Positions 2,295 through 48,518 of a stretch of DNA of 64,000 nucleotides are shown piece after piece. The notes under the pieces are model-generated. The model was not told where the DNA came from. It saw nothing but the letters and a program-made list of their open reading frames with translations, and did no database searches. The position numbers and the translations under genes are program-made. Origin of the DNA: Minisyncoccota bacterium (lineage in GTDB: Bacteria > Patescibacteriota > Minisyncoccia > Phycocordibacterales > CALRHW01); contig JAXLZT010000001.1 of the NCBI GenBank assembly GCA_046350795.1, forward strand, positions 181,780-245,779, given 5' to 3'. Numbering within the stretch: position 1 is the first letter of the stretch; each line of letters starts with the position of its first letter.

Positions 2295-2296
2295 TA

Positions 2297-2416: not shown

Positions 2417-2551
2417 GTTTTTATCAAATTATTTTTTAATCAGTCTGGTCGTTTTTATATTTTGACCTTAGACCCACTATTTGTATCAAATACCAAAATT
2501 TTTGCAAACTTTTTCTTTATATTTTGTGGATAACACCTTTATCTGTATATA

Positions 2552-3563: not shown

Positions 3564-3587
3564 TTTTTTCTGTATTATTTGCCCGCC

Positions 3588-4637: not shown

Positions 4638-4809
4638 AGCCTCATTATATACAAAAACAACACATAGCCATACACACTTGACACACATACATTTATATGC
4701 TAAGCTATTGTTGTCTTTGAAATAAAAGGGGAATTGGGAAACGCCAAGGCGAAAAGGCCTTGATTTTTATTGCCACTTATATAATATAGGTGGCCTGCGT
4801 TTCTTTGAG

Positions 4810-4978
4810 GATCCAAGATATAAATCTCTAAACAACGAAGCCCTTGTGGCTTAGTAGTATCTCTTCGGAGGACATTCTGGTTATCACCTTGTGTGATTTG
4901 CTGGGGTTATCCTTTGGGAAATATTTAACTTTTGGTACGAATATTAAAAGTGTTGTTTAGAGATTTATGCCTTGGATC
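4810..4978. ncRNA. Candidate structured ncRNA: 169-nt element closed by a 27-bp inverted repeat (2 mismatches) with internal UUCG-type hairpin; class unknown (6S-like?); alternative: MITE-like element
   Basis: gatccaagatataaatctctaaacaac (4810-4836) pairs with gttgtttagagatttatgccttggatc (4952-4978); sits in a 380-bp gene-free gap between pilB and ruvB with no ORF on either strand. Confidence 0.35.
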
Positions 4979-5071
4979 TTTTCGTAACTTTCTTTACATA
5001 ATTATTCACACGGTGGGTCTTTTTACAAGATTGTAAATTTTTAAAACTGTTTCTTAATGTGTGGTCTATGT

Positions 5072-7764: not shown

Positions 7765-7800
7765 GGGGATACAGAAAGACAGGGAGGAAAGACTCTCGTG

Positions 7801-7838
7801 GGCGCTGGTATCCGAAAGGAGACCAGCGCCTTTTCTTA
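7801..7838 (+). terminator. Rho-independent terminator (GGCGCTGGT...ACCAGCGCC + TTTTCTT)
   Basis: ggcgctggtatccgaaaggagaccagcgccttttctt immediately after lipoprotein stop. Confidence 0.7.
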
Positions 7839-7878
7839 TGCATTAATTTCCCATAAACTTTTGTGATAGTATGGTCGT

Positions 7879-8334
7879 ATGATGGTTACAAAAAGCCTTT
7901 TAGATACATATGCTCTTGCCTCAGATTTTGTAAATAATCTGTTAAAAATCTGTCAGATACCACCAGGAAAAGCGACAGTTGTTGGTCTATATGGTGATCT
8001 CGGCTCCGGCAAGACTGCTTTTGTGCAGGGTATGGCAAAAGCTCTGGGTGTGCACAATCAAGTAGTCAGTCCTACTTTTATATTACAAAAAAGATACGAG
8101 CTTGATCCAAAATTTCAACAGTGTTTTTTAAACTTAATTCATATAGATGCGTACAGGATGGAGTCGCCGGAAGAGCTGGCGCATATAAAATGGGAAGAGC
8201 TTTTAAAAGATCCACACAATCTGATTTGCATAGAATGGCCGGAAAGAGTTTATCAAGGAATGCCAACCGAGCACATACAAGTGGTGTGTACTTTTGTAGA
8301 TAAAGATATTCGTAAGTTTGATATTCATATGTAA
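7879..8334 (+). CDS. tsaE: tRNA threonylcarbamoyladenosine biosynthesis ATPase TsaE (YjeE)
   Basis: 151 aa; P-loop LYGDLGSGKTAFVQGMAKALGV...VSPTF typical of TsaE. Confidence 0.8.
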   Translation: MMVTKSLLDTYALASDFVNNLLKICQIPPGKATVVGLYGDLGSGKTAFVQGMAKALGVHNQVVSPTFILQKRYELDPKFQQCFLNLIHIDAYRMESPEELAHIKWEELLKDPHNLICIEWPERVYQGMPTEHIQVVCTFVDKDIRKFDIHM

Positions 8335-22764: not shown

Positions 22765-23277
22765 GTGATGTTTGTTGTTGTAAATGACAAAATGCAAAAG
22801 GGTTATCAGTACGAACTCTCTGAAAAGATGGGTGAAAATTTTGCGCCGGAATTTAAGCCAGACCTTACACCAAAAGAAATGCTTGAGATGGGCGTGTTTG
22901 GTGGGGTATATATGAGGGATTGTGTAGATGAGTTTCCGTCTGATTGGTTTGTAAAGGCAAAATTTGCACCAAAAGACACAAAAGAACACTTGGCCGAATT
23001 AAACTTTTTCAAAATAAACGCAAGTCAGCCACTGTCTGTCTGGAAAAAGAAGGGCTGGATTTATCATGAAGATCCGCGAGGGTGGTTTCAGTGGTATTGC
23101 CGGTATTATATGGGGCGCAGAATTTCAAAAGAGGATGAGAGGCAGATAAAAAGGTGGAAGGCTATCAGTAGACACATAGCTCAAGTGCAAAAAAACTGTC
23201 GCGCAGGCGATGCAATGTGCCGACCACGCCAACGTCAGGCGATACTACACTGGGCATATGATAGTAGAAGAGTTTAG
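22765..23277 (+). CDS. Hypothetical protein (Trp/Tyr-rich motif GWFQWYCRYYMGRR)
   Basis: 170 aa, no family recognised from memory. Confidence 0.4.
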   Translation: MMFVVVNDKMQKGYQYELSEKMGENFAPEFKPDLTPKEMLEMGVFGGVYMRDCVDEFPSDWFVKAKFAPKDTKEHLAELNFFKINASQPLSVWKKKGWIYHEDPRGWFQWYCRYYMGRRISKEDERQIKRWKAISRHIAQVQKNCRAGDAMCRPRQRQAILHWAYDSRRV

Positions 23278-23380
23278 GAGTAGGAAAAGCGATAGAAATA
23301 ATTGAATCTTGACCCCATTTCTCCGATGCCTTAGTCTAGGGACAGAATCTTTGACATCACCCCCCCACAAGGAGTAAAAA

Positions 23381-24490
23381 TTGAACACAAACAATGTTCC
23401 TACCATTTGCCTGACGGGTGGACCCTGTGCGGGCAAGACCACCATCCTTAGTCGTTTGCAAGAGAGGCTCGATGACCTTGGCTTTGCGGTGGTTGTGGTG
23501 CCTGAGGTGGCGACAGAGTTCATCTCTTCAGGCATCCGGCCTGCTTTGATCGAGCCACACCGCTTTCAGTGCCACATCCTTGAGCACATCATGGCCAAGG
23601 AAGATCGTTTCAAGGCGCTCGCTCAGATCATGTCTGTCGACAAGAAGGTCGTCATATGTGATCGAGGCGCAGTCGATGCTGCTGCATACATGTCGCCCAT
23701 GCATTTTGACTTGATGCTCGGCCAGCTTGGACTCACTGTCGTCGACTTGCGTGACGCTCGATACGACGGCGTGGTGTTCTTGCGTTCTGTTGCGGTGGAC
23801 GCTCCCCATATCTACACCTGCGATAACAACAAAGCTCGCAGGGAGTCAGTAGAGGAGGCTTGTTTGATCGACGAGTGTACGCTCGCTGCGTGGACTGGAC
23901 ATCCGCACTTGCGTGTCATCGACAACAGCACCGATCTCGAAGGCAAATCACATCGGGTACTTCAGGCGATTTGCAGAGTGCTCGGCATCCCCACACCCCT
24001 GGAGATTGAGAAAAAGTACCTGGTGAACCAGTGCGATCTCAGTCGTCTTCCGCTTCCTCATCGGTCTGTGGAAATCGAACAGTACTACCTCAAGACCGAA
24101 GACGGAAAGGGAGTGGAACGTATTCGTCGACGAAGTCAGTGTGGAGGCTTTACTTACTACCACACTGTGAAGCAGGATCTTCGCTCCGGTGTGCGTATTG
24201 AGAATGAAAGTCAGATCACCGAGGCCGAGTTCCTGATCCTCCTGCAAAGAGCAGATCCGGAGTTTGGCAAGATCGGAAAGACCCGGTACTGCTTTCTGTG
24301 GAACAATCAGTACTTTGAGCTCGACGTGTTCCACAACCCCTCCGGCCTGGTTCTGCTCGAGATCGAGCTCACGGAAGAGAACGACTTGGTCATCTTGCCA
24401 GACTTTCTCGTGGGCCATGTGATGGATGTAACTGGCAGCGATAGGTACAGCAATGTTCAAATCGCTCGTCGAATCGTAGCCGGGGTGTGA
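23381..24490 (+). CDS. P-loop nucleoside/nucleotide-kinase-like domain fused to C-terminal CYTH (triphosphate tunnel metalloenzyme) domain; GC-rich gene
   Basis: Walker A ICLTGGPCAGKTT (AAA_28/uridine-kinase-like) then EIEKKYLV...YYLKTEDGKGVERIRRR...LLEIELTEE (CYTH EIERKF-type start and acidic tunnel residues). Confidence 0.6.
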   Translation: MNTNNVPTICLTGGPCAGKTTILSRLQERLDDLGFAVVVVPEVATEFISSGIRPALIEPHRFQCHILEHIMAKEDRFKALAQIMSVDKKVVICDRGAVDAAAYMSPMHFDLMLGQLGLTVVDLRDARYDGVVFLRSVAVDAPHIYTCDNNKARRESVEEACLIDECTLAAWTGHPHLRVIDNSTDLEGKSHRVLQAICRVLGIPTPLEIEKKYLVNQCDLSRLPLPHRSVEIEQYYLKTEDGKGVERIRRRSQCGGFTYYHTVKQDLRSGVRIENESQITEAEFLILLQRADPEFGKIGKTRYCFLWNNQYFELDVFHNPSGLVLLEIELTEENDLVILPDFLVGHVMDVTGSDRYSNVQIARRIVAGV

Positions 24491-24516
24491 TGCTGTTCGT
24501 TCGCCAAATGAAACAA

Positions 24517-24549
24517 GGCCCGCGCTTCCTCAAGCGCGGGCCTTTTGCT
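24517..24549 (+). terminator. Rho-independent terminator (GGCCCGCGC-TTCCTCAA-GCGCGGGCC + TTTTGCT)
   Basis: Read directly. Confidence 0.7.
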
Positions 24550-24587
24550 GTGTAGTTCTCTTTAATAGGCTATATGTACACTCATAG

Positions 24588-24616
24588 CAAGAAAAAGGGC
24601 CGCCAGGTGGCGGCCC
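24588..24616 (-). terminator. Minus-strand terminator (GGGCCGCCAGGTGGCGGCCC hairpin, U-run on minus side) for the 24701-25219 gene
   Basis: Read directly; convergent with the preceding terminator. Confidence 0.6.
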
Positions 24617-24700
24617 TTTGGGGGGGGTGTGTGAACAGTAAATACAACTCTGCTCGTTCACCCAAAACGGTGTCGAGGACTTACTTCTCTTTTACAGCTA

Positions 24701-25219
24701 CTACTCCAGTGTGGCGAGAACGAGGTCGCGATCTGTCAGGACGCGATTCTTGATCTGCCTTGTGCCGTCTTCCTGCACGACGTAGGTCGTGACGTAGTAC
24801 TCGCGATAGGAGAGAGACACCCTCCTACCGTTGTACAGACTCCACTGATTGTAGAGCTGTGGACCGTTGAGGATGAGGTTGAACCCAGGTGCACGGAATG
24901 CTGTCGTGTACACCGGAGACCCCCTCGAGCTCTGTGGACCGTACTGGTGACGGTGGTTGTTCTCACGGTTGACTTCAGCCATGATGGGGAAAGGGAATGA
25001 CCTTACCCTCACCAACGGAAGCACGATCTCTCTCGGGTCATCAGCAGTCTCCACCGTTGCGACACAATTCATGGTGTCGGAGTGTTCATGCACGTAGAGC
25101 AGCTTCTCGCTGGGGAAGTACTTGTCGTTGATGAAGACCGTTCCACAGATCATGAACGTGGCGACCAGAGTGATGGCCATCGTGATTGCATGCGGGTTTC
25201 TCTCAGCCCAGTTGGGCAT
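24701..25219 (-). CDS. Hypothetical N-terminally membrane-anchored protein; GC-rich gene
   Basis: 172 aa; TM MAITLVATFMICGTVFI; no domain recognised. Confidence 0.45.
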   Translation of the reverse strand: MPNWAERNPHAITMAITLVATFMICGTVFINDKYFPSEKLLYVHEHSDTMNCVATVETADDPREIVLPLVRVRSFPFPIMAEVNRENNHRHQYGPQSSRGSPVYTTAFRAPGFNLILNGPQLYNQWSLYNGRRVSLSYREYYVTTYVVQEDGTRQIKNRVLTDRDLVLATLE

Positions 25220-35886: not shown

Positions 35887-35961
35887 ATGGTGGCTATAGT
35901 TTAGTGGTAAAACTTCGGTTTGTGGAGCCGATATCGAGAGTTCGATTCTCTCTAGCCACCC
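35887..35961 (+). tRNA. tRNA-His (anticodon GTG) with G-1 and C73, CCA encoded
   Basis: G-1 GTGGCTA.../TAGCCAC-C-CCA, anticodon loop TTGTGGA. Confidence 0.8.
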
Positions 35962-37547
35962 CAAGAAAGAATTAAGTGAGCGAAAGCGGCATTTCGTGCC
36001 TCAGCTGTAAGGTATTTCTGTAGTTCCAACCGACAATATTCAGCTTCAAGCTCTGGATATGCTTTTTCTATTGGAACAAACCAATCGTTGGCTTTAATCC
36101 TCACTATTTGGTCCTTTATTGAAAAGTTCCAACCGAGTGCGGAGAAGATCTCTCGCTTCCTCTCCAAGGTCCCAGAATTAAAGTTTTCTCTGGCATAGCA
36201 GGCAAAGCTAAATGCCTTTTCGGTGAGCTCTAGCCACTTATCGGCTCGGTTCTCAGTGTTTCGGAGATTGCTCTTAAGCTTTGTTATTTTATCTTTCAAT
36301 CCATCACGCTCTTTTACGAAGGTCTCATCATCAATTAATTCTCGGTAACGCATCTTTGTAAGAGCATCAATTTCTTTTTGAGTTTCGGCGACTGCTTTAT
36401 GCTGTGTTTCGTAGACCTTGGTTCGGTCCTCAATCTCTTTATTATTTTCTCTATTCAAAATCTCAAGAGCCCAGTCTTTGAATTTGGGTAAGATGGTATA
36501 TCGTTCAAGTTCAATATCAACCTGGTCCTCTAACTGTTTAAGAGTAACAGGGCTTCTTTGAGTACACTTAGTGCCTTTCTTACGACGGGTACAGTTGTAG
36601 TAAACATATTTCTCAAAGGTGTTTGTTTTCTTAACAAACTTTATCTTTTCACTTGCGGTGTACATCGAACCACATTCTTCACAGTAAATAAGGCCGGTAT
36701 AAGCAAATTCATGGGTCTTTGCTCGAGGCTTACCATTACGACCCATAAGAGCCTGGACCCGATCATACTCCTCAAGGCTAATCATGGGCTTATGGTTGCC
36801 CTTATACAGCTTGCCGGACCACTCAAACATGCCGGTGTAGAAGATATTGGTGAACATCTTATAAATCACGCTGCTGGCGAGTTCACCGCCACCACCTCGT
36901 TTAGTTTTTGCAGTTCTAAAACCCCACTTATCATTCGCAATCTTTAAAATCTGTGGAGGAGTATAGTTGCCGGTAAGCATCATGTCCCATATCTTGCGGA
37001 CCAAATCAAAACGCTCTTTATCCTCGATAATTATATGCTCAAGTTTGTCATTTAAATATCCGATAGGAGCACGAGAGGGTAGCCAACCTCGATCAGCTTT
37101 CCCAACCATTCCACGCATACTGTTTTTCTTAAGATCAATGATGAATTGATTTGCCATTCCGCTTTCAACACTAAAAAGGAGAACGTTATCGTCAGGTAAG
37201 TACTGGCGATCAATCGTCTGAATACATTTTAAAACTCCTTGCTGCAACATCCAACCGAGAGCTCCGCTATCAACTGGGTTTCGAGAAAGTCGATTTAGTT
37301 GCCAACAAAGGATACCGTCAGCTTCGCCTCGCTGAATGCGTTTGAGCATGTCATCGAAGACTGGTCGGCAATAAGGCTTCTTGGCAGATTTAGCTTCTGT
37401 CAGAACTTCTTTAATAGTGATTCCTAGGCTGTTTGCCAGCTCCTTTAGGCGGTTCACTTGATCGTCGATAGACTGAACCTGCCTGTCCTCACTTTCAGAG
37501 GATTTTCTAGCGTATATGAAGAGTGTTCTTGGTGTAGTTTGGTTCAT
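35952..37547 (-). CDS. Large serine recombinase (resolvase catalytic domain + recombinase domain + zinc ribbon/coiled coil)
   Basis: 531 aa; LFIYARKSSESEDRQVQSIDDQ (catalytic Ser region), ...DGILCWQLNRLSRN..., C-terminal CEECGSMY...CTRRKKGTKC zinc ribbon. Confidence 0.85.
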   Translation of the reverse strand: MNQTTPRTLFIYARKSSESEDRQVQSIDDQVNRLKELANSLGITIKEVLTEAKSAKKPYCRPVFDDMLKRIQRGEADGILCWQLNRLSRNPVDSGALGWMLQQGVLKCIQTIDRQYLPDDNVLLFSVESGMANQFIIDLKKNSMRGMVGKADRGWLPSRAPIGYLNDKLEHIIIEDKERFDLVRKIWDMMLTGNYTPPQILKIANDKWGFRTAKTKRGGGGELASSVIYKMFTNIFYTGMFEWSGKLYKGNHKPMISLEEYDRVQALMGRNGKPRAKTHEFAYTGLIYCEECGSMYTASEKIKFVKKTNTFEKYVYYNCTRRKKGTKCTQRSPVTLKQLEDQVDIELERYTILPKFKDWALEILNRENNKEIEDRTKVYETQHKAVAETQKEIDALTKMRYRELIDDETFVKERDGLKDKITKLKSNLRNTENRADKWLELTEKAFSFACYARENFNSGTLERKREIFSALGWNFSIKDQIVRIKANDWFVPIEKAYPELEAEYCRLELQKYLTAEARNAAFAHLILSWGG

Positions 37548-37553
37548 AGTAAT

Positions 37554-38537
37554 TTATCCGGCACTGCCTGCACTTATATCCTCATCCCTAATGTTATTTA
37601 AGTAAAGAGGATTTGTGAGTTCTTCCGCTTTATTCCGCTCTATTTCGTCTAACTCCGTTTTTTCACCGTTTTTTAACGGTTGGATGTTATCAGAATTGAT
37701 ATCATCTCCTGACCGTTTTTCCACCGCTATTTCGGACTCAATGTTATCAAAATTGATATCATTCGTTTCCCGTAATTTACCCGTATTTACGGGAATACTT
37801 GGACCCTGCATTTCACCTGCATAAGCAGGCTCATTTTTGTCCCTATTTGTCCCTAAATTTCCCTCATCCCGTCTCCAGGGTGGTACATACGGTTTATAGT
37901 TCATATTGCCGGAAGGGTTGGGAATAGCAAGCTTCTGCCTTTTACTGATACTCATCTGGTCAGCCAGGGACTTTATTCGGTTATTTAACTCTTTAGGAGA
38001 GTTATTATTTAGGTTAGTTAGAGTATCAATTTCACTACTTTTTACTGAATTATCATCGGGTTTGATATCATTATTTCTTGATTTTTGATATCTTCCTTTC
38101 CAATTTGATAGCTTAATGCGCGGCGAGTGTTCACCCAAAGATTTCCAGTATATTGAACTTTGGAATGCGTAAAGGTTGGACCGGCCAAAACCATGTTGAC
38201 CTCTTTGGACAATAATAATTCCATGGTCTTCAAGAATTTGAATGGCTTTGCTTATGCTGGTCGGATTTTTCTCGCCAGTAAATTTCAACAGACGTTTGAT
38301 GCTCGGAAAAGCTCCTTGAGTTTCAGTGTTGCAGTGTCTTAAGAGGACATTCAAAACGGCACCACATAGTCTTGGGAGCTTTGCTACATACCAACCATCA
38401 ACATACTCGTTATCTACAAAATAACGAGTTGGTTTATCTTTGGGGCGTAGCCGATCGAAGGGAATATCACGCAATAGGTTGGTTGCTCTCATTCTCTTGC
38501 GATCTTTCCATGAGTTGGGGTCTGGATTCCATTTCAT
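37554..38537 (-). CDS. Hypothetical protein with winged-helix region (possible replication-initiator/DnaD-like), Asn/Ser-rich C-terminus
   Basis: 327 aa; ...SIKRLLKFTGEKNPTSISKAIQILEDHGIIIVQRG... Confidence 0.4.
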   Translation of the reverse strand: MKWNPDPNSWKDRKRMRATNLLRDIPFDRLRPKDKPTRYFVDNEYVDGWYVAKLPRLCGAVLNVLLRHCNTETQGAFPSIKRLLKFTGEKNPTSISKAIQILEDHGIIIVQRGQHGFGRSNLYAFQSSIYWKSLGEHSPRIKLSNWKGRYQKSRNNDIKPDDNSVKSSEIDTLTNLNNNSPKELNNRIKSLADQMSISKRQKLAIPNPSGNMNYKPYVPPWRRDEGNLGTNRDKNEPAYAGEMQGPSIPVNTGKLRETNDINFDNIESEIAVEKRSGDDINSDNIQPLKNGEKTELDEIERNKAEELTNPLYLNNIRDEDISAGSAG

Positions 38538-38751
38538 CTTGGGTAATTCTTTTGATTAATAAAGGGAGGGTAGATTCTCGGTGCTTTTGAATCTTTTCAA
38601 ACTGCTCTTTGGTCATCGGCCGATAGACAGCAGACATAAGCCGCACAAGTTTGATACCTTGCTCATAGGCTTGTTCAGCACTTATTTCCTTACCGAATTC
38701 GCTTCGGTAGAGTGCCTGGAACTTTGCAATGTCTGTGTCGGTCAGGACCAT
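38467..38751 (-). CDS. Hypothetical protein (94 aa) within island
   Basis: ORF only. Confidence 0.35.
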   Translation of the reverse strand: MVLTDTDIAKFQALYRSEFGKEISAEQAYEQGIKLVRLMSAVYRPMTKEQFEKIQKHRESTLPLLIKRITQDEMESRPQLMERSQENESNQPIA

Positions 38752-38753
38752 GA

Positions 38754-39026
38754 CTATTCCGAGTAGAGTTTGTTCTTGAGGGCCTTGATACTGTCAAAGA
38801 ACGACCGAGCTTTGACTTTCAGTTGGTCTGAAAAATATTGATTGGCATAATTATCAATTTCTGCCTCTCGTTTGAATACGAAAAGAGCCTTGCGAGGATC
38901 GTCTCGGTCCAAGCGGATAAGCTTGTACCCAAGGCACATGAGTGCCGCCGATACTCCAAGGTCATAGGTTGTGAACACATCAGGTCCATCAGCTTCGGGC
39001 TGGGACCAACTCCGTTTTTTAATCAT
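38754..39026 (-). CDS. Hypothetical protein (90 aa) within island
   Basis: ORF only. Confidence 0.35.
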   Translation of the reverse strand: MIKKRSWSQPEADGPDVFTTYDLGVSAALMCLGYKLIRLDRDDPRKALFVFKREAEIDNYANQYFSDQLKVKARSFFDSIKALKNKLYSE

Positions 39027-39152
39027 GAGTAATATTGTTAGTTATTAATTAATGCTCTAAACAAAAAAGCCAAAGCATTACGCTCTGACTTTATTCGTCC
39101 GAAGGAGAAAGGTGGACGGAATGATTATGGGTTTAGTGTGGGTTCAATGTGA

Positions 39153-39743
39153 TCAGGTAATCAGCTTGTAGCCCAAGCCTTTAATATTCTTGATGATGTC
39201 CTTATTTTTAGCTTTCTTGGCTGGAAGGATACCAAGTACCTCTTTAATATTTCTGATTACAAAAGTGAGGTTACGTTTAGTCGTTTTAGATACAGATTCT
39301 CCAAGGATGTCAGTGTAGGTAACCTGATGGTTCTTGGCAGTGGCGAGCTTGAGAAGGGTCTCGAACTCCTGACTCTTTGGGTTAAAGATAGCCTCAACCT
39401 CATTCAAGCGGACTGCAGCAGTGACTTTGTCGATGGAGAGGGTATTGGTCCCAATTTCGATTGTGATGACATCGGTATCAGTCTTATTTTCATTTAAATA
39501 ATTGGCAAAGGTGCTTATAACCCAGAAACTAACCGCTTTACCAATAATGTTTAGATCACCGATAAGGCCTTCTTGCTCGAGTTTTTTCAAAATAAGAATC
39601 TGTTCTTTTACTGTGAGAGAAGGTTGATCATTGAGCTGTAACTTCAAAATGCCAGCAGGACTTATCAGAGCTCTTTCGTGGATTAAAACCTTGATGAATT
39701 GTATCTTCTGGACCGGCGTCATTGTAATAGTAATTTGATACAA
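39153..39743 (-). CDS. Hypothetical protein with possible OmpR/PhoB-type C-terminal winged-helix DNA-binding domain
   Basis: C-terminal ...NIKEVLGILPAKKAKNKDIIKNIKGLGYKLIT resembles trans_reg_C ending GYRL. Confidence 0.35.
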   Translation of the reverse strand: MYQITITMTPVQKIQFIKVLIHERALISPAGILKLQLNDQPSLTVKEQILILKKLEQEGLIGDLNIIGKAVSFWVISTFANYLNENKTDTDVITIEIGTNTLSIDKVTAAVRLNEVEAIFNPKSQEFETLLKLATAKNHQVTYTDILGESVSKTTKRNLTFVIRNIKEVLGILPAKKAKNKDIIKNIKGLGYKLIT

Positions 39744-39797
39744 ATCTACAACGAATTTGGCTTTTCTCCAATAGCGTGTTTACTGGTTTGACAGTCT

Positions 39798-39814
39798 ATA
39801 CCCCTAGGGGGTAT
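39798..39814 (+). promoter_or_regulatory. Candidate CsoR operator: GC-tract inverted repeat ATACCCCTAGGGGGTAT 6 bp upstream of csoR
   Basis: Seen directly; resembles type-1 CsoR sites (e.g. B. subtilis copZA operator TACCC-N4-GGGTA, recalled from memory). Confidence 0.55.
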
Positions 39815-39819
39815 TATGT

Positions 39820-40092
39820 ATGTATATGAGACAAGATATCAAAACAAAAGCTATTCGTCGATTAAAAATTGTTGAGGGACAGATTAGGGGCCTGCAGAAA
39901 ATGGTTGAGGATGAGAAGTATTGTATCGACATTATTACTCAAGCTTCGGCTATTAAAGAGGCACTTACTGGAATTGAGGGCCTAGTTCTTGAAAATCATC
40001 TTTCTACGCATGTTGTTCACCAAATGAAGCATGGTAGCGAAAAGAAAGCTGTCGATGAGATTCTTAAGGTTTATAAGCTCAAGCGCAAATAA
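39820..40092 (+). CDS. csoR: CsoR/RcnR-family (DUF156) metal-sensing transcriptional repressor
   Basis: 90 aa; ...KIVEGQIRGLQKMVEDEKYCIDIITQASAIKEAL...LENHLSTHVV. Confidence 0.75.
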   Translation: MYMRQDIKTKAIRRLKIVEGQIRGLQKMVEDEKYCIDIITQASAIKEALTGIEGLVLENHLSTHVVHQMKHGSEKKAVDEILKVYKLKRK

Positions 40093-40096
40093 AAAT

Positions 40097-42424
40097 ATGA
40101 ATCATCCCATTAAAACATATAGAGTAAAAGGAATGCATTGCGCTTCTTGCGCTGGCATTATTGAGAAGACCTTCAAGAAGACTGAGGGAGTCCATTCTGC
40201 TGAAGTAAATTATGGGACCGAAAAAGCGAAGGTTGTCTTTGATGAATCAAAAACAAGTGCGCAGGAGCTTTCAAAGAAAATAGAGCCACTTGGCTACTCC
40301 TTGGCTCTGGACCAAGAAATGTCACATGACCATGGTAGTCAATCAGCAGAAGCGATGGGTATGTCGGCAGATGAACATGCGGCACATCTGGGACTCAATC
40401 AGTCCAAGAAAGAGAAGCTTGCTGAAGTTGCTGATATGCGAACAAAATTATTCTCTGCCATTCCTCTCGCAATTTTCGCAGCACTCGTTATGGGATGGGA
40501 TATTCTCGCTCAATACAAGGCGGTTCCTGAAATGAGCTATACGATCAAAGAATTTATCCACCATCTTCTTCCGATACTAGCTACATATATCCTGTTTGTT
40601 GTCGGTAAACCATACCTCATGGGTTTTTATCGATTCCTTAGATACGGCAAGGCAAACATGGATACGCTGATCGGTATTGGAACCACTGCCGCATTTTTAT
40701 ATAGCTTTGCTGTCACTGCTTTTGAAGAAGCTCTACGTCCATTTATAAACGTGGACTACCAATACTATGATGTCACGATTGTGGTTATTACTTTTATAGC
40801 CCTTGGCAAATATCTTGAAGCTCGATCGAAAATTAAGACGGGTGATGCCATAGAAAAACTCCTCAATCTTCAAGCTAAAACAGCTTTGGTCATTCGTGAT
40901 GGAAAGGAAGTAGAAATTTCAGTGAATGAGGTGAAGCACGGCGACCTTATTATCGTTAAGCCAGGCGCAAAGATTCCTGTAGACGGTGTTATTACTGAAG
41001 GTTCCTCATTTATCGATGAGTCCATGGTTACCGGAGAGCCGATGCCTGCTCAGAAGAAAATCGGAGACAGTGTCGTATCCGGAACCATAAACACAAGCGG
41101 TTCATTTACTTTCAAGGCCACCAAGGTTGGGTCCGAAACGCTTCTTGCTCAGATCATCAAGATGGTTGAAGACGCTCAAGGCAGCAAGGCCCCGATTCAG
41201 GCACTAGCAGATAAGATATCAGCAGTCTTCGTGCCTATAGTTTTAGTAATTGCATTTCTCACTCTTGGCGCATGGCTTATCTTTGGCTCACAGTACCTAG
41301 GATTCTCCCAAGCTCTCTCATTCGGTCTGGTTTCATTTGTCGGTATTCTCGTGATCGCATGTCCCTGTGCTCTTGGTCTTGCAACACCTACGGCCATTAT
41401 CGTAGGAGTCGGTAAGGGGGCTAAGGAAGGCATACTTATCAAAGATGCGGCAACTCTGGAGAAGCTCCATAAAGTAAATACTGTTGTTGTTGATAAAACA
41501 GGGACCATCACCAAAGGAAAACCAACTCTTGTTGATATACAAAATCTTTCTGATTTAAAAGATGAGGAATTGGTATCAATTCTTGCTTCACTTGAGAAAA
41601 AATCAGAACATCCAATTGCTCATGCAATTGTAAATTACGCACAAGAGAAAAACATTTCCACATCAGATATTTCAAATTTTGAGGGAATACAAGGCAAAGG
41701 TCTAAAGGGAATAGTGAAAGGTACTGAATACTTTGTCGGCAACGCTAAGCTCGTTAGTGATCTTAAGGTTTCCTTTGACGCAACAAAACTTAATGAATTT
41801 ACTTCCCAAGGTAAAACACCAGTTATCCTTGCTACTAAAGAAAAGGTCCTCGGCTTTGTCATGGTGGCTGATGAAATTAAAGCAGAGTCGGTCGAGGCAG
41901 TAAAAAATCTTCATGCCCTGGGTATAAAAGTGGTTATGCTCACTGGTGATGATGAAAAGGCTGCCAAGTACATTGCCTCTCTTGTGGGAATTGATGATGT
42001 TGTCGCCCACGTTCTGCCACAGGATAAGCTCGAAAAAATAAAAGAGCTACAGTCACAAGGTCGAGTGGTTGCCATGGCAGGTGATGGCGTGAACGACGCT
42101 CCAGCGCTTGCTCAAGCGGATGTAGGTATTGCCATGGGGACTGGAACAGATGTGGCGATTGAGTCGGCTGGTATAACACTTCTCGGCGGAGATATCTCTA
42201 AGCTCGTAAAAGCTATCAAGCTCTCGAAGATCACTATGCGTGGGATTAAGCAGAATCTATTCTGGGCGTTTATCTATAACATCGTTGGTATACCGCTTGC
42301 AGCAGGAGCCCTATATCCAGTCTTCGGTTGGCTTTTAAATCCCGTCTTTGCTGGATTTGCCATGGCCATGTCTTCGGTATCGGTTGTATCAAATTCACTT
42401 CGCATTAAAGCCAAAAAACTATAA
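40097..42424 (+). CDS. copA: Copper-translocating P1B-type ATPase CopA (N-terminal HMA domain)
   Basis: GMHCASCAG (HMA), CPC motif ACPCALGLATP, DKTGT (VVDKTGTITKG), GDGVNDAPALA; start at MNHPIK (40097) 4 bp after csoR stop. Confidence 0.9.
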   Translation: MNHPIKTYRVKGMHCASCAGIIEKTFKKTEGVHSAEVNYGTEKAKVVFDESKTSAQELSKKIEPLGYSLALDQEMSHDHGSQSAEAMGMSADEHAAHLGLNQSKKEKLAEVADMRTKLFSAIPLAIFAALVMGWDILAQYKAVPEMSYTIKEFIHHLLPILATYILFVVGKPYLMGFYRFLRYGKANMDTLIGIGTTAAFLYSFAVTAFEEALRPFINVDYQYYDVTIVVITFIALGKYLEARSKIKTGDAIEKLLNLQAKTALVIRDGKEVEISVNEVKHGDLIIVKPGAKIPVDGVITEGSSFIDESMVTGEPMPAQKKIGDSVVSGTINTSGSFTFKATKVGSETLLAQIIKMVEDAQGSKAPIQALADKISAVFVPIVLVIAFLTLGAWLIFGSQYLGFSQALSFGLVSFVGILVIACPCALGLATPTAIIVGVGKGAKEGILIKDAATLEKLHKVNTVVVDKTGTITKGKPTLVDIQNLSDLKDEELVSILASLEKKSEHPIAHAIVNYAQEKNISTSDISNFEGIQGKGLKGIVKGTEYFVGNAKLVSDLKVSFDATKLNEFTSQGKTPVILATKEKVLGFVMVADEIKAESVEAVKNLHALGIKVVMLTGDDEKAAKYIASLVGIDDVVAHVLPQDKLEKIKELQSQGRVVAMAGDGVNDAPALAQADVGIAMGTGTDVAIESAGITLLGGDISKLVKAIKLSKITMRGIKQNLFWAFIYNIVGIPLAAGALYPVFGWLLNPVFAGFAMAMSSVSVVSNSLRIKAKKL

Positions 42425-43041
42425 TGAAAAAACTCCTCTCATTACTAATAATCACAAGTGTCCTAGTAATAGGGGTGTTTGGTTTTACCTCGATGAATCA
42501 TGGGACCAATCACACTACCGGTTGTATCGCCTCAGCCGTAGACAATACGCCATGTCCGGAAAACATCGCAGCAATGTCGGTCCACCATATACAGGCATTC
42601 GTTTCATTCTTCAGCGTGATCCCGTCAATTCCGTTTATCTTTCTGCTCGCATTTCTTTTGGCAGTATTTCTCAGCATAGGATTCGTTTATATAAAACGAC
42701 AGGATTCGCTCTTAGCTAATCTTGCATTTTGGCGAATTCAGCACGATCCTGAACGTGCTCTCACTCGCCCAAGGGAAATTACTCGCTGGCTTTCTCTATT
42801 TGAAAACAGTCCTTCGATGCATAGAATTTTCATTATCAATTCTAATCTCATAAATCTATGCAAACAAAAAAGTCTAAGGAAAATAAAAAACATAAAACTA
42901 TCGATCAAGAAGTGGCATTCGATCTTGTCTGCGGAATGGAGCTTGATGCAGACGGTATTAAGGCAACTGCAGACTACAAAGGTAAGACCTATTACTTTTG
43001 TGCTATCCACTGCAAGAATCACTTTACAGCCGATCCTGTGA
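42424..43041 (+). CDS. Hypothetical secreted/membrane protein (N-terminal ~100 aa convincing; C-terminal part overlaps YHS ORF and may be spurious read-through)
   Basis: MKKLLSLLIITSVLVIGVFGF...GCIASAVDNTPCPENIAAMSVHH... Confidence 0.3.
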   Translation: MKKLLSLLIITSVLVIGVFGFTSMNHGTNHTTGCIASAVDNTPCPENIAAMSVHHIQAFVSFFSVIPSIPFIFLLAFLLAVFLSIGFVYIKRQDSLLANLAFWRIQHDPERALTRPREITRWLSLFENSPSMHRIFIINSNLINLCKQKSLRKIKNIKLSIKKWHSILSAEWSLMQTVLRQLQTTKVRPITFVLSTARITLQPIL

Positions 43042-43058
43042 AGTATGCCGGAGAGTAA
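42858..43058 (+). CDS. YHS/TRASH-domain metal-binding protein
   Basis: DLVCGMELDADG...YKGKTYYFCAIHCKNHFTADP matches YHS consensus. Confidence 0.6.
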   Translation: MQTKKSKENKKHKTIDQEVAFDLVCGMELDADGIKATADYKGKTYYFCAIHCKNHFTADPVKYAGE

Positions 43059-43081
43059 CTCATTAATCTAACTACAAAAAT

Positions 43082-43723
43082 ATGAACAACCAAAACAACA
43101 AAATATTATACGGAATCGGCGGAATTGTTATCGGAATTCTTCTTGTCTCAGTGCTCACTCCAATGTTTCGATATGGTGGATACGGAATGATGAGCTGGAG
43201 AAGTAACTCCGTATCGGACCAAAGAGTGAGTGGAAACACTCAGGTGGCCGGTACAATCGACAAGCACTTCATCGAGCAGATGATCCCTCACCATGATGGA
43301 GCTATCGCTATGGCAAACCTCGCCCTCCAAAAGGCTAAGCGTCCCGAGATTAAAACCTTGGCTACAGCTATTATTGCAGCTCAGACAGCGGAGATTCAAA
43401 GCATGAACGGCTGGTATCAGGACTGGTTCAGAAGTACTGTTCCGAAGGTAAGTACCGGAATGATGGGTGGAGGCATGATGTCACAGAGCGGAATGCACAT
43501 GGGCGGACAGGAAGATATGACTGCACTAGAAAATGCATCTGATTTTGACAAAGCCTTTATCGAAGAAATGATCCCACATCACCAGTTGGCGATCATGATG
43601 ACAAATATGCTTCAGTCAGGGACCAACCGACCTGAGATGCAGCAGCTCGCAAAGAACATCATCTCATCTCAATCAAAAGAAATTCAGCAAATGCAGGCTT
43701 GGTATACCCAGTGGTACAAATAA
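43082..43723 (+). CDS. DUF305-domain protein (two repeats), family associated with copper-resistance loci
   Basis: FIEQMIPHHDGAIAMANLAL... and FIEEMIPHHQLAIMMTNML repeats. Confidence 0.65.
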   Translation: MNNQNNKILYGIGGIVIGILLVSVLTPMFRYGGYGMMSWRSNSVSDQRVSGNTQVAGTIDKHFIEQMIPHHDGAIAMANLALQKAKRPEIKTLATAIIAAQTAEIQSMNGWYQDWFRSTVPKVSTGMMGGGMMSQSGMHMGGQEDMTALENASDFDKAFIEEMIPHHQLAIMMTNMLQSGTNRPEMQQLAKNIISSQSKEIQQMQAWYTQWYK

Positions 43724-43755
43724 ACTTATTAAAAAATAATTAAACATAAAAATAT

Positions 43756-43977
43756 ATGAAAATATCAAAAGTAATGCATGTAGGAAGTGTTATCACAGGT
43801 TTTGTTGGAGTAATAGTATTTATAGGAACACTCATCGGCGGTGGCGACAATCTAGTGTTTGGAATTACAAAAATGGATGCATTAGCGTGTTCTGCGATTC
43901 TTATCCTTATCGCCACATGGCTTCAGATCGCAACCATCCATCACATGATGCTTGAGAAAAAGGGAGAGATTGTGTAA
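43756..43977 (+). CDS. Small two-TM membrane protein
   Basis: 73 aa. Confidence 0.4.
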   Translation: MKISKVMHVGSVITGFVGVIVFIGTLIGGGDNLVFGITKMDALACSAILILIATWLQIATIHHMMLEKKGEIV

Positions 43978-43998
43978 TTAAGAGAAATATTATCAATC

Positions 43999-45018
43999 AT
44001 GAAAACACTAACCTTCCACGTACATGGCATGCACTGCAACGCTTGTGTGCTCATGACAGAAAGCGAGCTTGGAGACTTGCCCAATATCACTCACGTTAAA
44101 TCGAGCCTTAAGAATCATTCAGTAGAAGTTACCGGAGACTTTGGAAATAAGACACAGGAACAAATTGCTGAAGAACTTACTGTTCCACTGAAGCCTCATG
44201 GCTACACAGTCTCAGTAGAAAAACAACAGCACAATGCTAAATGGGGAGACTTCAAGATTGCAGTACCTATAGCACTCGGCTTTGCGGTGCTCTTTGTGGT
44301 GCTACAGAAAATGGGAATAGTAAATCTTGTTAGCGCTGGCAACGTAACCTACGGCACAGCATTCGTAATCGGTATCATCGCTTCGCTTTCAACTTGTATG
44401 GCAGTCGTTGGGGGACTGGTTCTCTCGATGTCAGCCACATTCGCTAAAGAAGGAGATAAGGTTCGGCCCCAGCTCATGTTCCATGGAGGTCGAATTGTCT
44501 CATTCTTTATTCTCGGTGGAGTAATCGGTGCGATTGGATCAGCGTTCACGCTCAACACCTCGGCAACATTTATCCTAAGCCTGATTATCGGTATCGTCAT
44601 GCTTATTCTCGGTATCAATCTTCTCGATACATTCCACTGGGCCAAGAAACTTCAGCCGTCCATGCCGAAGTTCATTGCCAAGCATGCGCATGGCGTTTCT
44701 AAATTCAATCACACGCTCACTCCGCTCCTTGTAGGGGTCGCAACATTCTTCTTGCCGTGCGGGTTCACTCAATCGATGCAACTCTATACATTGACCACAG
44801 GAAGTTTCCTAACTGGAGGACTCACCATGCTGGCTTTTGCACTGGGTACACTGCCGGTCCTTGCGCTCATTAGCTTCAGCTCATTCAGCATTCAAAAAAG
44901 TTCAAAGGCAGGAGTCTTCTTCAAGACAGCCGGATTGATAGTCATCATGTTCGCACTCTTTAATCTTATTAATAGCTTGGTCGTGATTGGGGTTATACCA
45001 CCAGTCTTTAATTTCTAG
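43999..45018 (+). CDS. HMA (heavy-metal-associated) domain fused to polytopic membrane domain (CcdA/DsbD-like or permease-like)
   Basis: FHVHGMHCNACV (HMA MxCxxC) then ~8 TM helices. Confidence 0.55.
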   Translation: MKTLTFHVHGMHCNACVLMTESELGDLPNITHVKSSLKNHSVEVTGDFGNKTQEQIAEELTVPLKPHGYTVSVEKQQHNAKWGDFKIAVPIALGFAVLFVVLQKMGIVNLVSAGNVTYGTAFVIGIIASLSTCMAVVGGLVLSMSATFAKEGDKVRPQLMFHGGRIVSFFILGGVIGAIGSAFTLNTSATFILSLIIGIVMLILGINLLDTFHWAKKLQPSMPKFIAKHAHGVSKFNHTLTPLLVGVATFFLPCGFTQSMQLYTLTTGSFLTGGLTMLAFALGTLPVLALISFSSFSIQKSSKAGVFFKTAGLIVIMFALFNLINSLVVIGVIPPVFNF

Positions 45019-45031
45019 TATAATCTCAATT

Positions 45032-45421
45032 ATGAAAGCAACTATTATTTCAGTTATCGTGGCAGTGGTCCTAATCGGGGGAGCTTTTATGCTCACTAAA
45101 AGTGGTGGTAATACCGGACAGGTGGCGAACGCAAACAATGTTACCGTCGTTGACGGAAAACAAATCATTGAAATAAGTGCTAAAGGCGGATATCAACCCC
45201 GAAAAAGTATTGCTAAGGCAGGCATACCAACCATCATCCGATTTAACACAAAGGGAACCTTCGATTGTTCATCCTCGATTCGTATTCCAAGTCTCGGTAT
45301 AAGCAAATCACTTCCACAAACGGGATCAACCGATATTGATATTGGAACTCAGAAAGTAGCAACCCTTCAAGGAACTTGCGGAATGGGAATGTATCCTTTT
45401 GAGGTAGAGTTTCAGGGCTAG
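45032..45421 (+). CDS. Hypothetical secreted protein (possible cupredoxin-like/metal-binding), ends ...CGMGMYPFEVEFQG
   Basis: Start MKATIISVIVAVVLIGGAFML. Confidence 0.4.
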   Translation: MKATIISVIVAVVLIGGAFMLTKSGGNTGQVANANNVTVVDGKQIIEISAKGGYQPRKSIAKAGIPTIIRFNTKGTFDCSSSIRIPSLGISKSLPQTGSTDIDIGTQKVATLQGTCGMGMYPFEVEFQG

Positions 45422-45428
45422 TTTTTGA

Positions 45429-46331
45429 TTAAGAAGACTTAGAATGAAACGAGTGTAAATTCTCAATGTGCTGAGAGGGCGTGATGTCTGCGGTTTGGCA
45501 AACATATGAAAGCTTTCCAAGTATCAAATGAAGATTTTCTTCTGACAGTTTTGCGTCGGTATGTTTTTGAATGCATCCCACAATTTCTTCTGAGTGGAGA
45601 ACATTCTCAATTGGCTCTGTCTTGAATTCACATGAGTCAGTAAATACAACTATGCTTTGGAAAGCATTCTCTGGAATAGACGGCATAAGTAACTTGAGAG
45701 ACATAATATGGGACCAGTTTTGTCGTATAGGATTCTGAAATTGGAATTTGTTCTTTCCGCCAGGCAATGACTGGGTCCAGTTATCTTGATCCTTACTACC
45801 GAATATCCACCCCTTATAATCTTTACTTTCAATTACGAAGATACCGAACTTTGATACAACCAGGTGGTCAATCTGAGACGATCCGTTATGGTCCGAAGGA
45901 ATCGTGAGGTTATTAAAAATAAAATAATCCTTGTAGCTCAAACCTTCAGCGAGAATGTGGGCAATTTCTTGCTCTCCGTCAGTAAGTCCGTCCATATAGC
46001 ATTTGCAGCCATGTTTTTCACTGTTGATAGATTTTATTTGGTCCTCACTTGCTCCGGCAGGGATGTAAAGATTATTAGAGATCGGACTTTTAGACTGGTT
46101 TTTAATTTTCCTGATTACCCAAACAATACCGCCAAGTATCAGACCCCATACAAGTATCTTTCCTAGTATTCCTATAAAATTGCCAGATGTGATTGATGAT
46201 ATGGACCCGAGAAGAATAAATGCAGTTCCGATAATAAAGATCCCTTTTAATGGTTCGAAGGGTTGGCTGTAATTCCCGTAACGTCGTCGTCGGTAATAAT
46301 ATGGTTTTCGATAATTGCGGTAGTAGCTCAT
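45429..46331 (-). CDS. Membrane-anchored NERD (nuclease-related domain) protein
   Basis: Arg/Tyr-rich N-terminus, 2 TM, then ...IDHLVVSKFGIFVIESKDYKGWIFGS... NERD signature. Confidence 0.6.
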   Translation of the reverse strand: MSYYRNYRKPYYYRRRRYGNYSQPFEPLKGIFIIGTAFILLGSISSITSGNFIGILGKILVWGLILGGIVWVIRKIKNQSKSPISNNLYIPAGASEDQIKSINSEKHGCKCYMDGLTDGEQEIAHILAEGLSYKDYFIFNNLTIPSDHNGSSQIDHLVVSKFGIFVIESKDYKGWIFGSKDQDNWTQSLPGGKNKFQFQNPIRQNWSHIMSLKLLMPSIPENAFQSIVVFTDSCEFKTEPIENVLHSEEIVGCIQKHTDAKLSEENLHLILGKLSYVCQTADITPSQHIENLHSFHSKSS

Positions 46332-46428
46332 TGATTATTTTTGTTAAGACAATTATAACCGAAATCAGACAAATAGACTTTAATCAAAAACCTTTATATA
46401 AAGGTGAAAAAATGGTAAACAGAGAAGA

Positions 46429-48066
46429 ATGGAATGGTTCGAAAGATTAAAAACAGGCCTTTTGATAACAAGTATCAAAGGTGATATACGTCAGCCATAC
46501 AATGAAGCGATGGGAAACATCGCAAAGGGTTATTCTCGTTGGCACACTGCATCTAGCTATTTTTATGATATGGAAAGAATTTTACTCGAAATGAAGATGA
46601 CTCGCTCTTTTGTAGAACAGCTTCCCGACGATGCCTTTTATATGACGCATGCTATCAACGCCGAAGACTACATCATGTACCATCATGGCTATTTCCTTGA
46701 TCTGGTGCATCAGCTGAAAGATAAGACATGTCAGCTGATAAGTGCGATAACCAATCCAGATAAAAAATATTCAAGTGAGAATGAAAGAGGGGTTAAGCTG
46801 AGTAAGCTGCTAAATAACGAACGTGTTAAACGAATACGAGGCCTCGTAAGAGCTCTCAGTGAGTGGAATGACAGCTCACACAAAGGACCAATTTCTATTG
46901 CGCTCAAGAAACGTACAAATTATCATCATTTTAAAAATCCTCTCACTGGGACGGAATCCTATTTTCAAGCAAAAGCACAGCGTAATCTTCTGCGACCAGA
47001 GATGCAGATTCACTTGAGCGAATATGGTAAGCAGATGGTTGATGAAAAGAGAAAGAAGAATCTGCAGACATGGCACGACGATGCAAAGGATAAGATGCAA
47101 AAAACTTCTGAGGTTATAAACACTAATCTTGAAGCCGTATCAAAATCCATCGTCGAGTATTACAAATTTCCTAAAGCAGATGACCCTACTGGTAAACGAA
47201 TATTTATGCGCTACATGCCTACGCTTGAATCGGTGAAGACGGTAGCAGGCACTCGAACGATTACGGATATCGATTCAATTTCAGCTGCAATGTTAAAAGG
47301 GCTTTCGGAATTACTCCAAGAAGCGTTGAATGATAACTTTGTTGCCCTTTATGTAAACGGAAGTATGGCGCGTGGTGAATTTAACATGGGTTTGTCGGAT
47401 ATAAATATTGTTGTTGTTCTCAAGGATACGACACCAATACCAAAAGATGTTCTAAGAAATATTATAGAAGCTCCTGCTAAGGAATGGGGCATACCGACTG
47501 ATATTCAGATACTTATACAGTCTGAGTTTATGGCCAAAGGAAATGAGAAGATGAAATTTGTTTGTAAGACTGACGGAGTGCGAATTTTTGGTCCAGATCT
47601 ACTTCAATATGACCCATTGCCAAATAAGTCCTATAAACTCGTATGGCTACTTAACAGTGACTTCAAAAATAAGTTGGCTGCATATCGTGCTTGGATTGTA
47701 GCCCAGCCATCGATTCCAATGGGGAGACGTTCGGCAATGATAGCTCGTGATCTTGCAAAGAGAGCATATCGCATGGCCTTTGGGCAAGTAATAGGTAATA
47801 ACACTGTGTATACAGCTAGTTTTAAGGAGATGCGTAGATTGTTTCAGTTTTATACACCTGAAAATAAAAAATTCCTTGATATGACATATCAACTTACTCA
47901 GCGATACCCAGGAGCTGATAAGGAGGGTCTATTGGCGATGGTTGACTCATATCAACGTAATCTTCTTCCTCTCTATGATCGGGTGAATGAGGTCGTTAAT
48001 GGGGTGAAGGAAGAAATACAGGAAGGTCAAAACCCAGGCATTGCTCCGGTTCATGCAGAACAGTAA
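46429..48066 (+). CDS. Nucleotidyltransferase-fold (Pol-beta superfamily) protein with ~290-aa N-terminal extension (possible HEPN-like Rx4H) and C-terminal helical domain
   Basis: NGSMARGEFNMGLSDINIVVV fits hG[GS]x11Dh[DE/N]h; N-terminal KRTNYHH possible Rx4HH. Confidence 0.45.
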   Translation: MEWFERLKTGLLITSIKGDIRQPYNEAMGNIAKGYSRWHTASSYFYDMERILLEMKMTRSFVEQLPDDAFYMTHAINAEDYIMYHHGYFLDLVHQLKDKTCQLISAITNPDKKYSSENERGVKLSKLLNNERVKRIRGLVRALSEWNDSSHKGPISIALKKRTNYHHFKNPLTGTESYFQAKAQRNLLRPEMQIHLSEYGKQMVDEKRKKNLQTWHDDAKDKMQKTSEVINTNLEAVSKSIVEYYKFPKADDPTGKRIFMRYMPTLESVKTVAGTRTITDIDSISAAMLKGLSELLQEALNDNFVALYVNGSMARGEFNMGLSDINIVVVLKDTTPIPKDVLRNIIEAPAKEWGIPTDIQILIQSEFMAKGNEKMKFVCKTDGVRIFGPDLLQYDPLPNKSYKLVWLLNSDFKNKLAAYRAWIVAQPSIPMGRRSAMIARDLAKRAYRMAFGQVIGNNTVYTASFKEMRRLFQFYTPENKKFLDMTYQLTQRYPGADKEGLLAMVDSYQRNLLPLYDRVNEVVNGVKEEIQEGQNPGIAPVHAEQ

Positions 48067-48518
48067 ATATGTGTTCTTTTTCGACCTTTTTTGCCCTATT
48101 TCACCCTATTTGCCCTAACGCTAGGCCAGATTAGGCCGAAAAGAGCCGAAATTATCCAAGAACTGCTATACTTTGCATGTCAGGAATGTAGATCGTCGCA
48201 TCATTCCTTTTCTCAAATATAGTTCTAACTTCCTCTACGACGGCACCCCATTCGAGAATGAGTGTTGCATAAGCAGCTGTTCGTCAATAAAGGCAAGTTA
48301 TGCGATTACAGCAATCAATTTATATGGTAGAATACTTTACAAGGTATTTTATATAAAACTTACCACCATGTTACTCAACGGAAACACACAAACTTGGTCA
48401 AGTTTCGCTAGAACCAACTCTCAGTAAAAGAGAGGAGGTTTTTAGTATCTATTTCAACATTCTAAAAAATCGCCTCTCTGGGCGGTTTTTAATTTTTATT
48501 TTTTTAATCATTTCCATC

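Follow-up and report, generated by a model that had tools for sequence, protein, structure and literature searches.

A nucleotidyltransferase-like gene as an exchangeable candidate defence cassette at the end of a copper-resistance island in Candidatus Paceibacterota

Two divergent genes lie at the distal end of an integrative island in Candidatus Paceibacterota, a lineage of the candidate phyla radiation (CPR), and raise the question of whether they act together. One encodes a 300-aa membrane-anchored protein with a NERD nuclease domain (45429-46331, minus strand), and the other a 545-aa nucleotidyltransferase (NTase)-like protein (46429-48066, plus strand). Unless a locus number is given, all coordinates refer to the window, the whole 64,000-nucleotide stretch of contig JAXLZT010000001.1 that we analyzed. 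The initial annotation of this stretch had proposed the two genes as a candidate defence module, a nuclease-NTase pair of the kind that integrative elements carry at their ends as phage-defence or abortive-infection cargo. We found that both open reading frames (ORFs) are real and separated by 97 bp, and that both are indeed cargo at the distal end of the island, the right end of which can now be placed at 48250. The paired module itself is largely refuted by the distribution of the two genes. The NTase-like gene is an autonomous cassette in a variable slot, the NERD gene is part of the island backbone beside that slot and independent of its occupant, and the association with defence is supported for the NTase-like gene, by its slot and its neighbours, and not for the pair.

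The slot became apparent from blastn comparisons between copies of the island and from the printed junctions, which together defined the cassette break-points. Between conserved flanks there are three mutually exclusive occupants, two of which bear defence signatures. Sister islands are 82-95% identical to the window up to 46417-46419, and again from 48061 or 48071 to approximately 48250. In L036, L037 and L040 (L-numbers designate individual loci), whose NERD protein is 96% identical to that of the window, a match of about 95% continues to 46419, 10 bp before the ATG of the NTase-like gene, and identity resumes at 91-92% over 48061-48250. The place of the NTase-like gene is taken there by a 121-aa gene and a 396-aa gene with Ser_hydrolase and HEPN_AbiU2 domains (Pfam 28.6 bits, cut-off 26.8; L036 4357-5909, L037, and L040 5357-6909). 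In L041, where the NERD protein is 87% identical, the same flanks are found (up to 46417, and 48071-48252), and they enclose a 175-aa gene and a gene for a 602-aa DUF4209 protein, the PADLOC candidate PDC-S39 (1e-29; L041 4626-6967).

We assign the divergent intergenic region (46332-46428) as the left flank of the slot because its first 88 bp or so, to 46417-46419, are kept in islands that carry the other cassettes. The right flank is the terminal arm of the island (48067-48250, on the attR side), which ends in GGCACCCCA, with CACCCCA at 48244-48250, and is kept at 86-100% identity in L005, L006, L007, L036, L037, L040 and L041. The NTase-like gene is thus the terminal gene of the island, with its stop codon approximately 184 bp from the island end. 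A scan for sigma-70-type consensus sites called none in the divergent intergenic region and, overall, fewer sites than in a shuffled control. Terminator-like sites were about twice as frequent as the shuffled mean, and none lies directly after the NTase-like stop codon.

One of the alternative occupants deserves mention in its own right. The 396-aa protein is a serine hydrolase (alpha/beta hydrolase) fused to HEPN_AbiU2, and PADLOC returned no match for the 121-aa/396-aa cassette, which may be an undescribed two-gene defence candidate.

To place the NTase-like gene in a wider context, we collected 32 loci encoding relatives of the 545-aa protein, of which approximately 19 are more distant (at most 73% identity to the window protein). 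Adjacency of NERD and NTase-like genes was assessed by tblastn with the window proteins, and recurrence of neighbours by all-against-all clustering of the neighbouring ORFs. A NERD gene stands beside the NTase-like gene only in L005-L007, which are copies of the window island with NTase-like proteins 90-100% identical to that of the window, and none of the approximately 19 more distant loci has one nearby. Islands with NERD proteins 87-96% identical hold the two other cassettes instead. The clustering revealed no recurring partner gene, and only a serine recombinase exceeds three distinct loci (9 loci). The NERD family is also several times larger (more than 213 homologs, compared with approximately 36 matches for the NTase-like protein), and some of its members lie directly after aspS or dnaJ, in housekeeping neighbourhoods of Paceibacterota without an NTase gene nearby (L034 6001-6927, L035 6001-6885). 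The initial annotation had held that the pair would fall if the two genes never co-occur elsewhere, and this is essentially what the distribution shows. The nuclease-NTase pair is an accident of adjacency, and the label of a two-gene system should not spread.

Exclusive cassettes between conserved flanks, several of them recognizable defence genes, have likewise been described for P2/P4 hotspots and SCCmec-side defence cassettes (PMC11470126) and for pipolins (PMC11551731), and the window slot shares with the hotspots outlined in those two reports a position at the margin of an integrative element. It differs from them, as far as they are outlined there, in having a CPR host, a small copper island and one occupant from an undescribed family, and in belonging to a serine-recombinase element that apparently targets a tRNA 3' end. 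Mobile elements and immune genes of the CPR are poorly charted, and a slot with three alleles in a delimited island offers a positional tool for finding new CPR defence genes.

The homologs in other loci have neighbours of the same kind. The NTase-like gene directly adjoins a bona fide Shedu SduA gene in L003 (7e-146), PDC-M04A/B in L014 (3e-82 and 3e-49), a type II restriction-modification set in L008 (Dam methyltransferase, MutH-like and N6_N4 methyltransferase), SNF2 and a type III restriction-modification system in L019 (Mod 3e-141, Res 6e-129), a methyltransferase and HKD-SNF2 in L016, a ResIII helicase in L020 and a DUF4365 gene in L012. The layout of the window island, in which a recombinase and the NTase-like gene occupy opposite ends, recurs in several loci. 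The recombinase gene borders a tmRNA in L001 and tRNA-Trp in L009; in L003 it is the NTase-like gene that borders a tRNA, tRNA-Glu. Because the NTase-like proteins and the recombinases do not co-diverge (between the window and L018, identity is 69% for the former and 30% for the latter; Spearman rho 0.16), we regard the NTase-like protein as exchangeable cargo rather than a recombination factor cognate to them. IMG/VR viral contigs yielded no relative of the family, a result that is neutral toward a defence role.

Three further observations concern these loci. In L014 (10001-11604), beside PDC-M04A/B, the homolog is broken into two ORFs (402 and 129 aa) and is probably a frameshifted pseudogene; we count this in favour of a defence role, as a dispensable gene might look this way. 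A methyltransferase of approximately 442 aa, a protein of approximately 130 aa and an SNF2/ResIII helicase recur near homologs in three loci (L016 12519-19051; L020 1788-3492 and 4516-7755; L019 2373-9874), and may represent either a common restriction-like system or a looser association with the NTase-like family. In L003, a pair resembling a diversity-generating retroelement (RVT_1 reverse transcriptase and bAvd, 1185-2607) lies a few kb from the cluster of recombinase, Shedu and NTase-like genes.

What, then, is the protein itself? The family comprises approximately 86 full-length members, all from Patescibacteria, and the conservation counts given here refer to 86 full-length members (after 50-90% clustering). 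The AlphaFold2 model of the 545-aa protein has a pLDDT of 88.3 and a pTM of 0.76. Pfam NTP_transf_2 passes its threshold narrowly (22.9 bits, cut-off 21; residues 304-349), within a Pol-beta/MNT-type NTase core at residues 283-390 or so (47275-47598, plus strand). The core is also matched by PDB profiles of AF0614 (1.4e-8), 9xbd_E (6e-8), AAD(9) (1.4e-7) and KNTase (2e-4), and by Foldseek to the MNT structures 7bxo, 5yep and 1no5. It is followed by a helical bundle (residues ~400-525; 47626-48003, plus strand) that Foldseek likens to the substrate-binding domain of ANT(3'')/(9) and KNTase. As a unit, the C-terminal half (residues ~275-525) aligns with AAD(9) over approximately 270 columns (6xz0; E 3.2e-4, TM-score on target 0.58), with further matches to AadA, ANT(4')-IIb and LinB; the KNTase-like helical C-terminus noted in the initial annotation was therefore borne out. 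We considered two other assignments. Neither Pfam nor NCBIfam gives a match to GlnE or GlnD, in agreement with the earlier view that this is not a housekeeping NTase, and a CBASS cyclase was rejected at 13.2 bits against a cut-off of 200 (NCBIfam CBASS_cyclase_b).

The active centre is altered in a systematic way. The initial annotation had read a motif GS-x11-D-I-N, with Asn for the second acidic residue, and this is present as G311-S312-x11-D324-x-N326 (47359-47406, plus strand). G311 is found in 85/86 members and S312 in 83/86; 77/86 keep Asp at 324, and at position 326 there is Asn in 79/86 (92%) and an acidic residue in only four. The hG[GS] element of the superfamily is thus present, but the [DE]h[DE]h carboxylate pair is replaced by D324-x-N326. 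Because Asn326 occurs in 79 of the 86 members, we interpret it as a hallmark of the family and not as decay, and to judge from the alignment it suggests that the module binds nucleotides in a non-canonical or non-catalytic way. The strand at residues 357-363 aligns with the AAD(9) strand that carries the catalytic base (E86) and with the AF0614 residues FEF. An acidic residue occurs at position 358 in 45/86 members and Glu at position 364 in 44/86; no acid is conserved across the family here, and D382 is a possible substitute.

The nearest characterized proteins are ANT(3'')(9)/ANT(9), namely AadA and AAD(9) (6xz0, 6sxj, 5g4a), together with KNTase, and these share with the window protein an NTase core followed by a helical bundle, the G-S and the first Asp. 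They are about 250-290 aa long, however, and identity to the window protein is only 10-14%. The window family differs in its extra 272-aa N-terminal domain, in its Asn at the second carboxylate, in lacking a conserved acid at the position of the base (E86/E87), and in having defence-type genes and not resistance genes as its neighbours.

The N-terminal domain is all-helical (residues 1-272; 46429-47244, plus strand), as delimited by the alignments and the 86-member table; a model of this domain has a pLDDT of 87.8. It is the best-conserved part of the protein. Residues R50, E54, G87, F89, H94, D98, K99, W146, R162, H166 and H167 are scored as invariant: R162 and H167 are present in 86/86 members, and H94, K97, K99, W146 and G87 in at least 84/86. 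The initial annotation had suggested a HEPN-like extension from the sequence Rx4HH. The motif is there and invariant (R162-T-N-Y-H-H167; 46912-46929, plus strand), but it is the motif alone that speaks for HEPN, and we rejected the assignment after Pfam, PDB profiles and Foldseek were all negative. Pfam searches of the domain in 15 members at E<=10 returned nothing, including from the HEPN clan; Foldseek against PDB and BFVD gave no significant match (best E 0.2); and the PDB profile search gave no genuine match, the apparent ones being His-tag artefacts on the HH(H) run.

The same domain, with the same motifs, also occurs as complete standalone proteins of approximately 280 aa, and no fusion partner other than this NTase unit was found for it. 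One such protein (P0230, 282 aa) is encoded in L038 (2606-3454), beside two ORF6N (KilA-N-like) genes. We used this one informative locus to ask whether the two halves might form a split system, and found no NTase gene near the standalone domain; P0230 shows that the N-terminal domain can, to judge from gene architecture, function alone.

Taken together, an ANT/MNT-like module with an altered centre is joined to a conserved domain without homologs in an undescribed family of approximately 86 members that is restricted to Patescibacteria. It belongs broadly with the NTase-containing conflict proteins, among which its N-terminal domain and its systematically altered NTase centre are new. Genomes of the CPR are tiny, and their defences are generally seen as relying mainly on restriction-modification systems. 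We favour, with moderate confidence, the explanation that the 545-aa protein is encoded by an autonomous single-gene cassette located in an attR-proximal defence hotspot of the copper island, and that it most likely acts as a stand-alone protein of the abortive-infection type directed against phages or other mobile genetic elements. Beyond the cassette behaviour, the context, the fold of the C-terminal half, the motif conservation and the independence from NERD, which were observed as described above, we infer that the protein acts in defence, how its domains share the work, and the state of any catalytic activity.

In the mechanism that we propose, the C-terminal half, which keeps the G-S and the first Asp, would probably be a regulatory or sensor module that binds a nucleotide or other ligand, and at most a transferase of a non-canonical kind; it would control the N-terminal helical domain. 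A non-catalytic role is suggested because Asn stands in place of the second carboxylate and no base is conserved. A putative cluster of R162, H167, H94, K97, K99, R50 and E54 would form the effector site of the N-terminal domain, for example one that cleaves phosphodiester bonds without metal or binds nucleic acid. The NERD protein next door would be an independent, membrane-tethered cytoplasmic PD-(D/E)xK nuclease of the island backbone. If the 545-aa protein proves protective, its N-terminal domain would be a new type of effector.

Several points weigh against this explanation. Approximately half of the independent loci have no recognizable defence neighbour, and the association with defence draws solely on genomic position and neighbourhood. 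PADLOC matched only some 50 residues of the NTase core (PDC-S09, 1.6e-8) and no validated defence family. The effector role of the N-terminal domain is a guess from its conservation. Finally, catalysis by the C-terminal half is conceivable: Asn can still ligate Mg2+, and D382, which is kept in 82/86 members, might substitute as a third carboxylate.

A more specific form of the defence explanation is one that we offer only tentatively and regard as rather unlikely. The protein may be a single-protein immune system specific to the CPR, in which a pseudo-nucleotidyltransferase (G-S...D-x-N) senses a nucleotide or phage cue and gates an N-terminal R...H effector of new fold. By analogy, such a system would follow the fused sensor-effector logic of CapRel, built from previously undescribed parts.

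Among the alternatives to a defence protein, the first to be weighed is an adenylyltransferase that modifies a small molecule such as an antibiotic or toxin, carried as resistance cargo in the manner of aadA or ant(9). The closest solved folds (AAD(9), AadA, KNTase and LinB, over the ~270 aligned columns) fit this idea, the rest of the island cargo confers copper resistance, and genes of the aadA type are classic mobile cassettes. We nonetheless consider it unlikely, given the Asn for the second carboxylate in 92% of members and the base strand without a conserved acid. Moreover, the extra 272-aa domain is the most conserved part of the protein and can stand alone, and the genes that take its place in the slot, like those next to its homologs, are of the defence type and not of the resistance type.

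Improbable, too, is a protein in the service of the element itself, whether as a recombination directionality factor (RDF) or recombinase accessory, or as a fused addiction module of the toxin-antitoxin kind that stabilizes the island. The serine recombinase is the sole recurrent neighbour (9 loci), and in an excised circle the terminal gene would adjoin attP and the recombinase gene. A role as RDF or recombinase partner was rejected, since the proteins do not co-diverge; moreover, the gene is swapped out in sister islands with the same backbone, and at roughly half of the loci no recombinase lies within 10 kb. For the addiction module there is precedent in FhepTA, a fused toxin-antitoxin found on mobile elements in which an N-terminal MNT precedes a C-terminal HEPN domain (PMC13000451). 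The type VII HepT/MntA systems are marked by RX4HXY in their toxin and by GSX10DXD in their antitoxin (PMC7641770). With FhepTA and HepT/MntA the window protein shares an MNT-like core, an Rx4H in a helical domain of one polypeptide and residence on a mobile element, and as a working analogy the NTase module could control a toxic helical domain. We did not assign it to the HepT/MntA group, as neither signature is present: the window motifs read R-TNYH-H-F-K, with Lys at position +2, and GSX11DXN. The domain order is also the reverse of that in FhepTA, with a 272-aa Rx4H domain at the N-terminus and without a HEPN match.

Quite improbable is a factor of anti-defence or of competition between mobile elements, for example one that binds or sequesters a nucleotide signal in a dead NTase pocket. 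Such a factor would suit a degenerate NTase centre that keeps the NTP-binding G-S, and a gene at the terminus of a mobile element; against it, of the three occupants of the slot two resemble defence genes (HEPN_AbiU2 and PDC-S39), and the family is absent from IMG/VR viral contigs. A dedicated two-gene module with the NTase-like protein as sensor or regulator and NERD as effector is very improbable in view of the distribution set out above, even though the genes are divergent neighbours in four island copies (the window, L005, L006 and L007) and NERD domains are known in defence proteins.

We return to the favoured explanation, of an independent NTase-like defence cassette beside a NERD gene of the backbone, to describe the NERD protein, whose features agree with the initial annotation: a NERD domain, an Arg/Tyr-rich tail and two transmembrane segments are all supported by Pfam and hydropathy. 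The Pfam NERD match (PF08378) scores 108.7 bits against a cut-off of 22.1 (E=2.9e-31, residues 118-231; approximately 45639-45980, minus strand). Residues 1-28 include 8 Tyr and 7 Arg/Lys, and hydrophobic segments centred at approximately 36-41 and 60-68 make up the transmembrane region (approximately 46107-46244, minus strand); such a segment is present in 101/105 homologs. The nuclease triad D155...E168-x-K170 is intact, and at least 95% of 106 sequences retain it. Because there are two transmembrane segments, a positive N-terminal tail and an RKIK after the second segment, the positive-inside rule predicts that the nuclease domain is probably anchored on the cytoplasmic side of the membrane.

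Among NERD proteins, which include N-terminal modules of PglW, MADS6 and MkoA and the reported stand-alone effector ZwsA (bioRxiv 10.64898/2026.04.06.716636), the window protein is a clear member with the D...ExK triad. Its matches to PglW, MADS6 and MkoA are weak, and unlike them it combines a two-segment membrane anchor with an Arg/Tyr-rich tail and lacks kinase, helicase and S4 domains. Members of its family are widespread among Paceibacterota and also occupy the housekeeping neighbourhoods noted above, and one homolog adjoins GmrSD in a different island. A housekeeping or constitutive role, such as keeping watch at the membrane for incoming DNA, is no less plausible than a defence role in the island.

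The island that carries these genes spans approximately 12.3 kb, from tRNA-His at 35963 to 48250. Its order is tRNA-His (35890-35963, plus strand; ARAGORN and Rfam), a large serine recombinase (35952-37547, minus strand; Pfam Resolvase, Recombinase and Zn_ribbon_recom), an HTH_36 protein, a regulator and then the copper-resistance set (40031-45421, plus strand; by Pfam a CopA P-type ATPase, YHS, DUF305, HMA-DsbD_2 and cupredoxin). At the right end, DNA identity with six other island copies, which come from different genomes and samples, stops at 48248-48253, mostly at 48250, and the flanks beyond 48250 are unrelated in every copy. In the window, folate genes begin downstream at 48519. The tRNA-His 3' end is GCCACCCCA, and its last seven nucleotides, CACCCCA (35957-35963), are repeated at the right terminus of the island. 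The tRNA is the probable integration site, judged from this repeat and from the recombinase gene, whose stop codon overlaps the tRNA 3' end. A search for long att direct repeats at the island ends found none, only the CACCCCA repeat of 7-9 nt, and such a short core fits integration by a serine recombinase at a tRNA 3' end. The left boundary at 35963 is putative, being set by the tRNA-His repeat; the expected empty site would have tRNA-His directly joined to TTCGAGAATGAG, followed by folB. We rejected a prophage origin, as the 545-aa protein has no IMG/VR relative and the island contains no phage structural genes by Pfam. In an Rfam search of the window, only tRNAs reached threshold.

A few additional features of the island ends and of the window were recorded. 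In L036, a second copy of the terminal arm, 83% identical, lies approximately 600 bp past the first (3440-3552 and 4150-4349), with a 181-aa ORF between them, and could be left over from an earlier insertion or a tandem one. The matching stretch extends 13 bp beyond the island end of the window, to 48263, which may reflect similarity to attB. Local G+C content rises to 0.51-0.54 at 7001-8000 and 23001-25000 of the window, against a background of approximately 0.40. Lastly, a serine recombinase gene ends inside a tRNA or tmRNA 3' end in three independent CPR loci, namely the window (tRNA-His 35890-35963, recombinase 35952-37547), L001 (tmRNA 4108-4497, recombinase 4456-6054) and L009 (tRNA-Trp 1958-2031, recombinase 1943-3685), which suggests a class of serine-recombinase islands aimed at tRNA and tmRNA 3' ends, sites that are usually the territory of tyrosine integrases.

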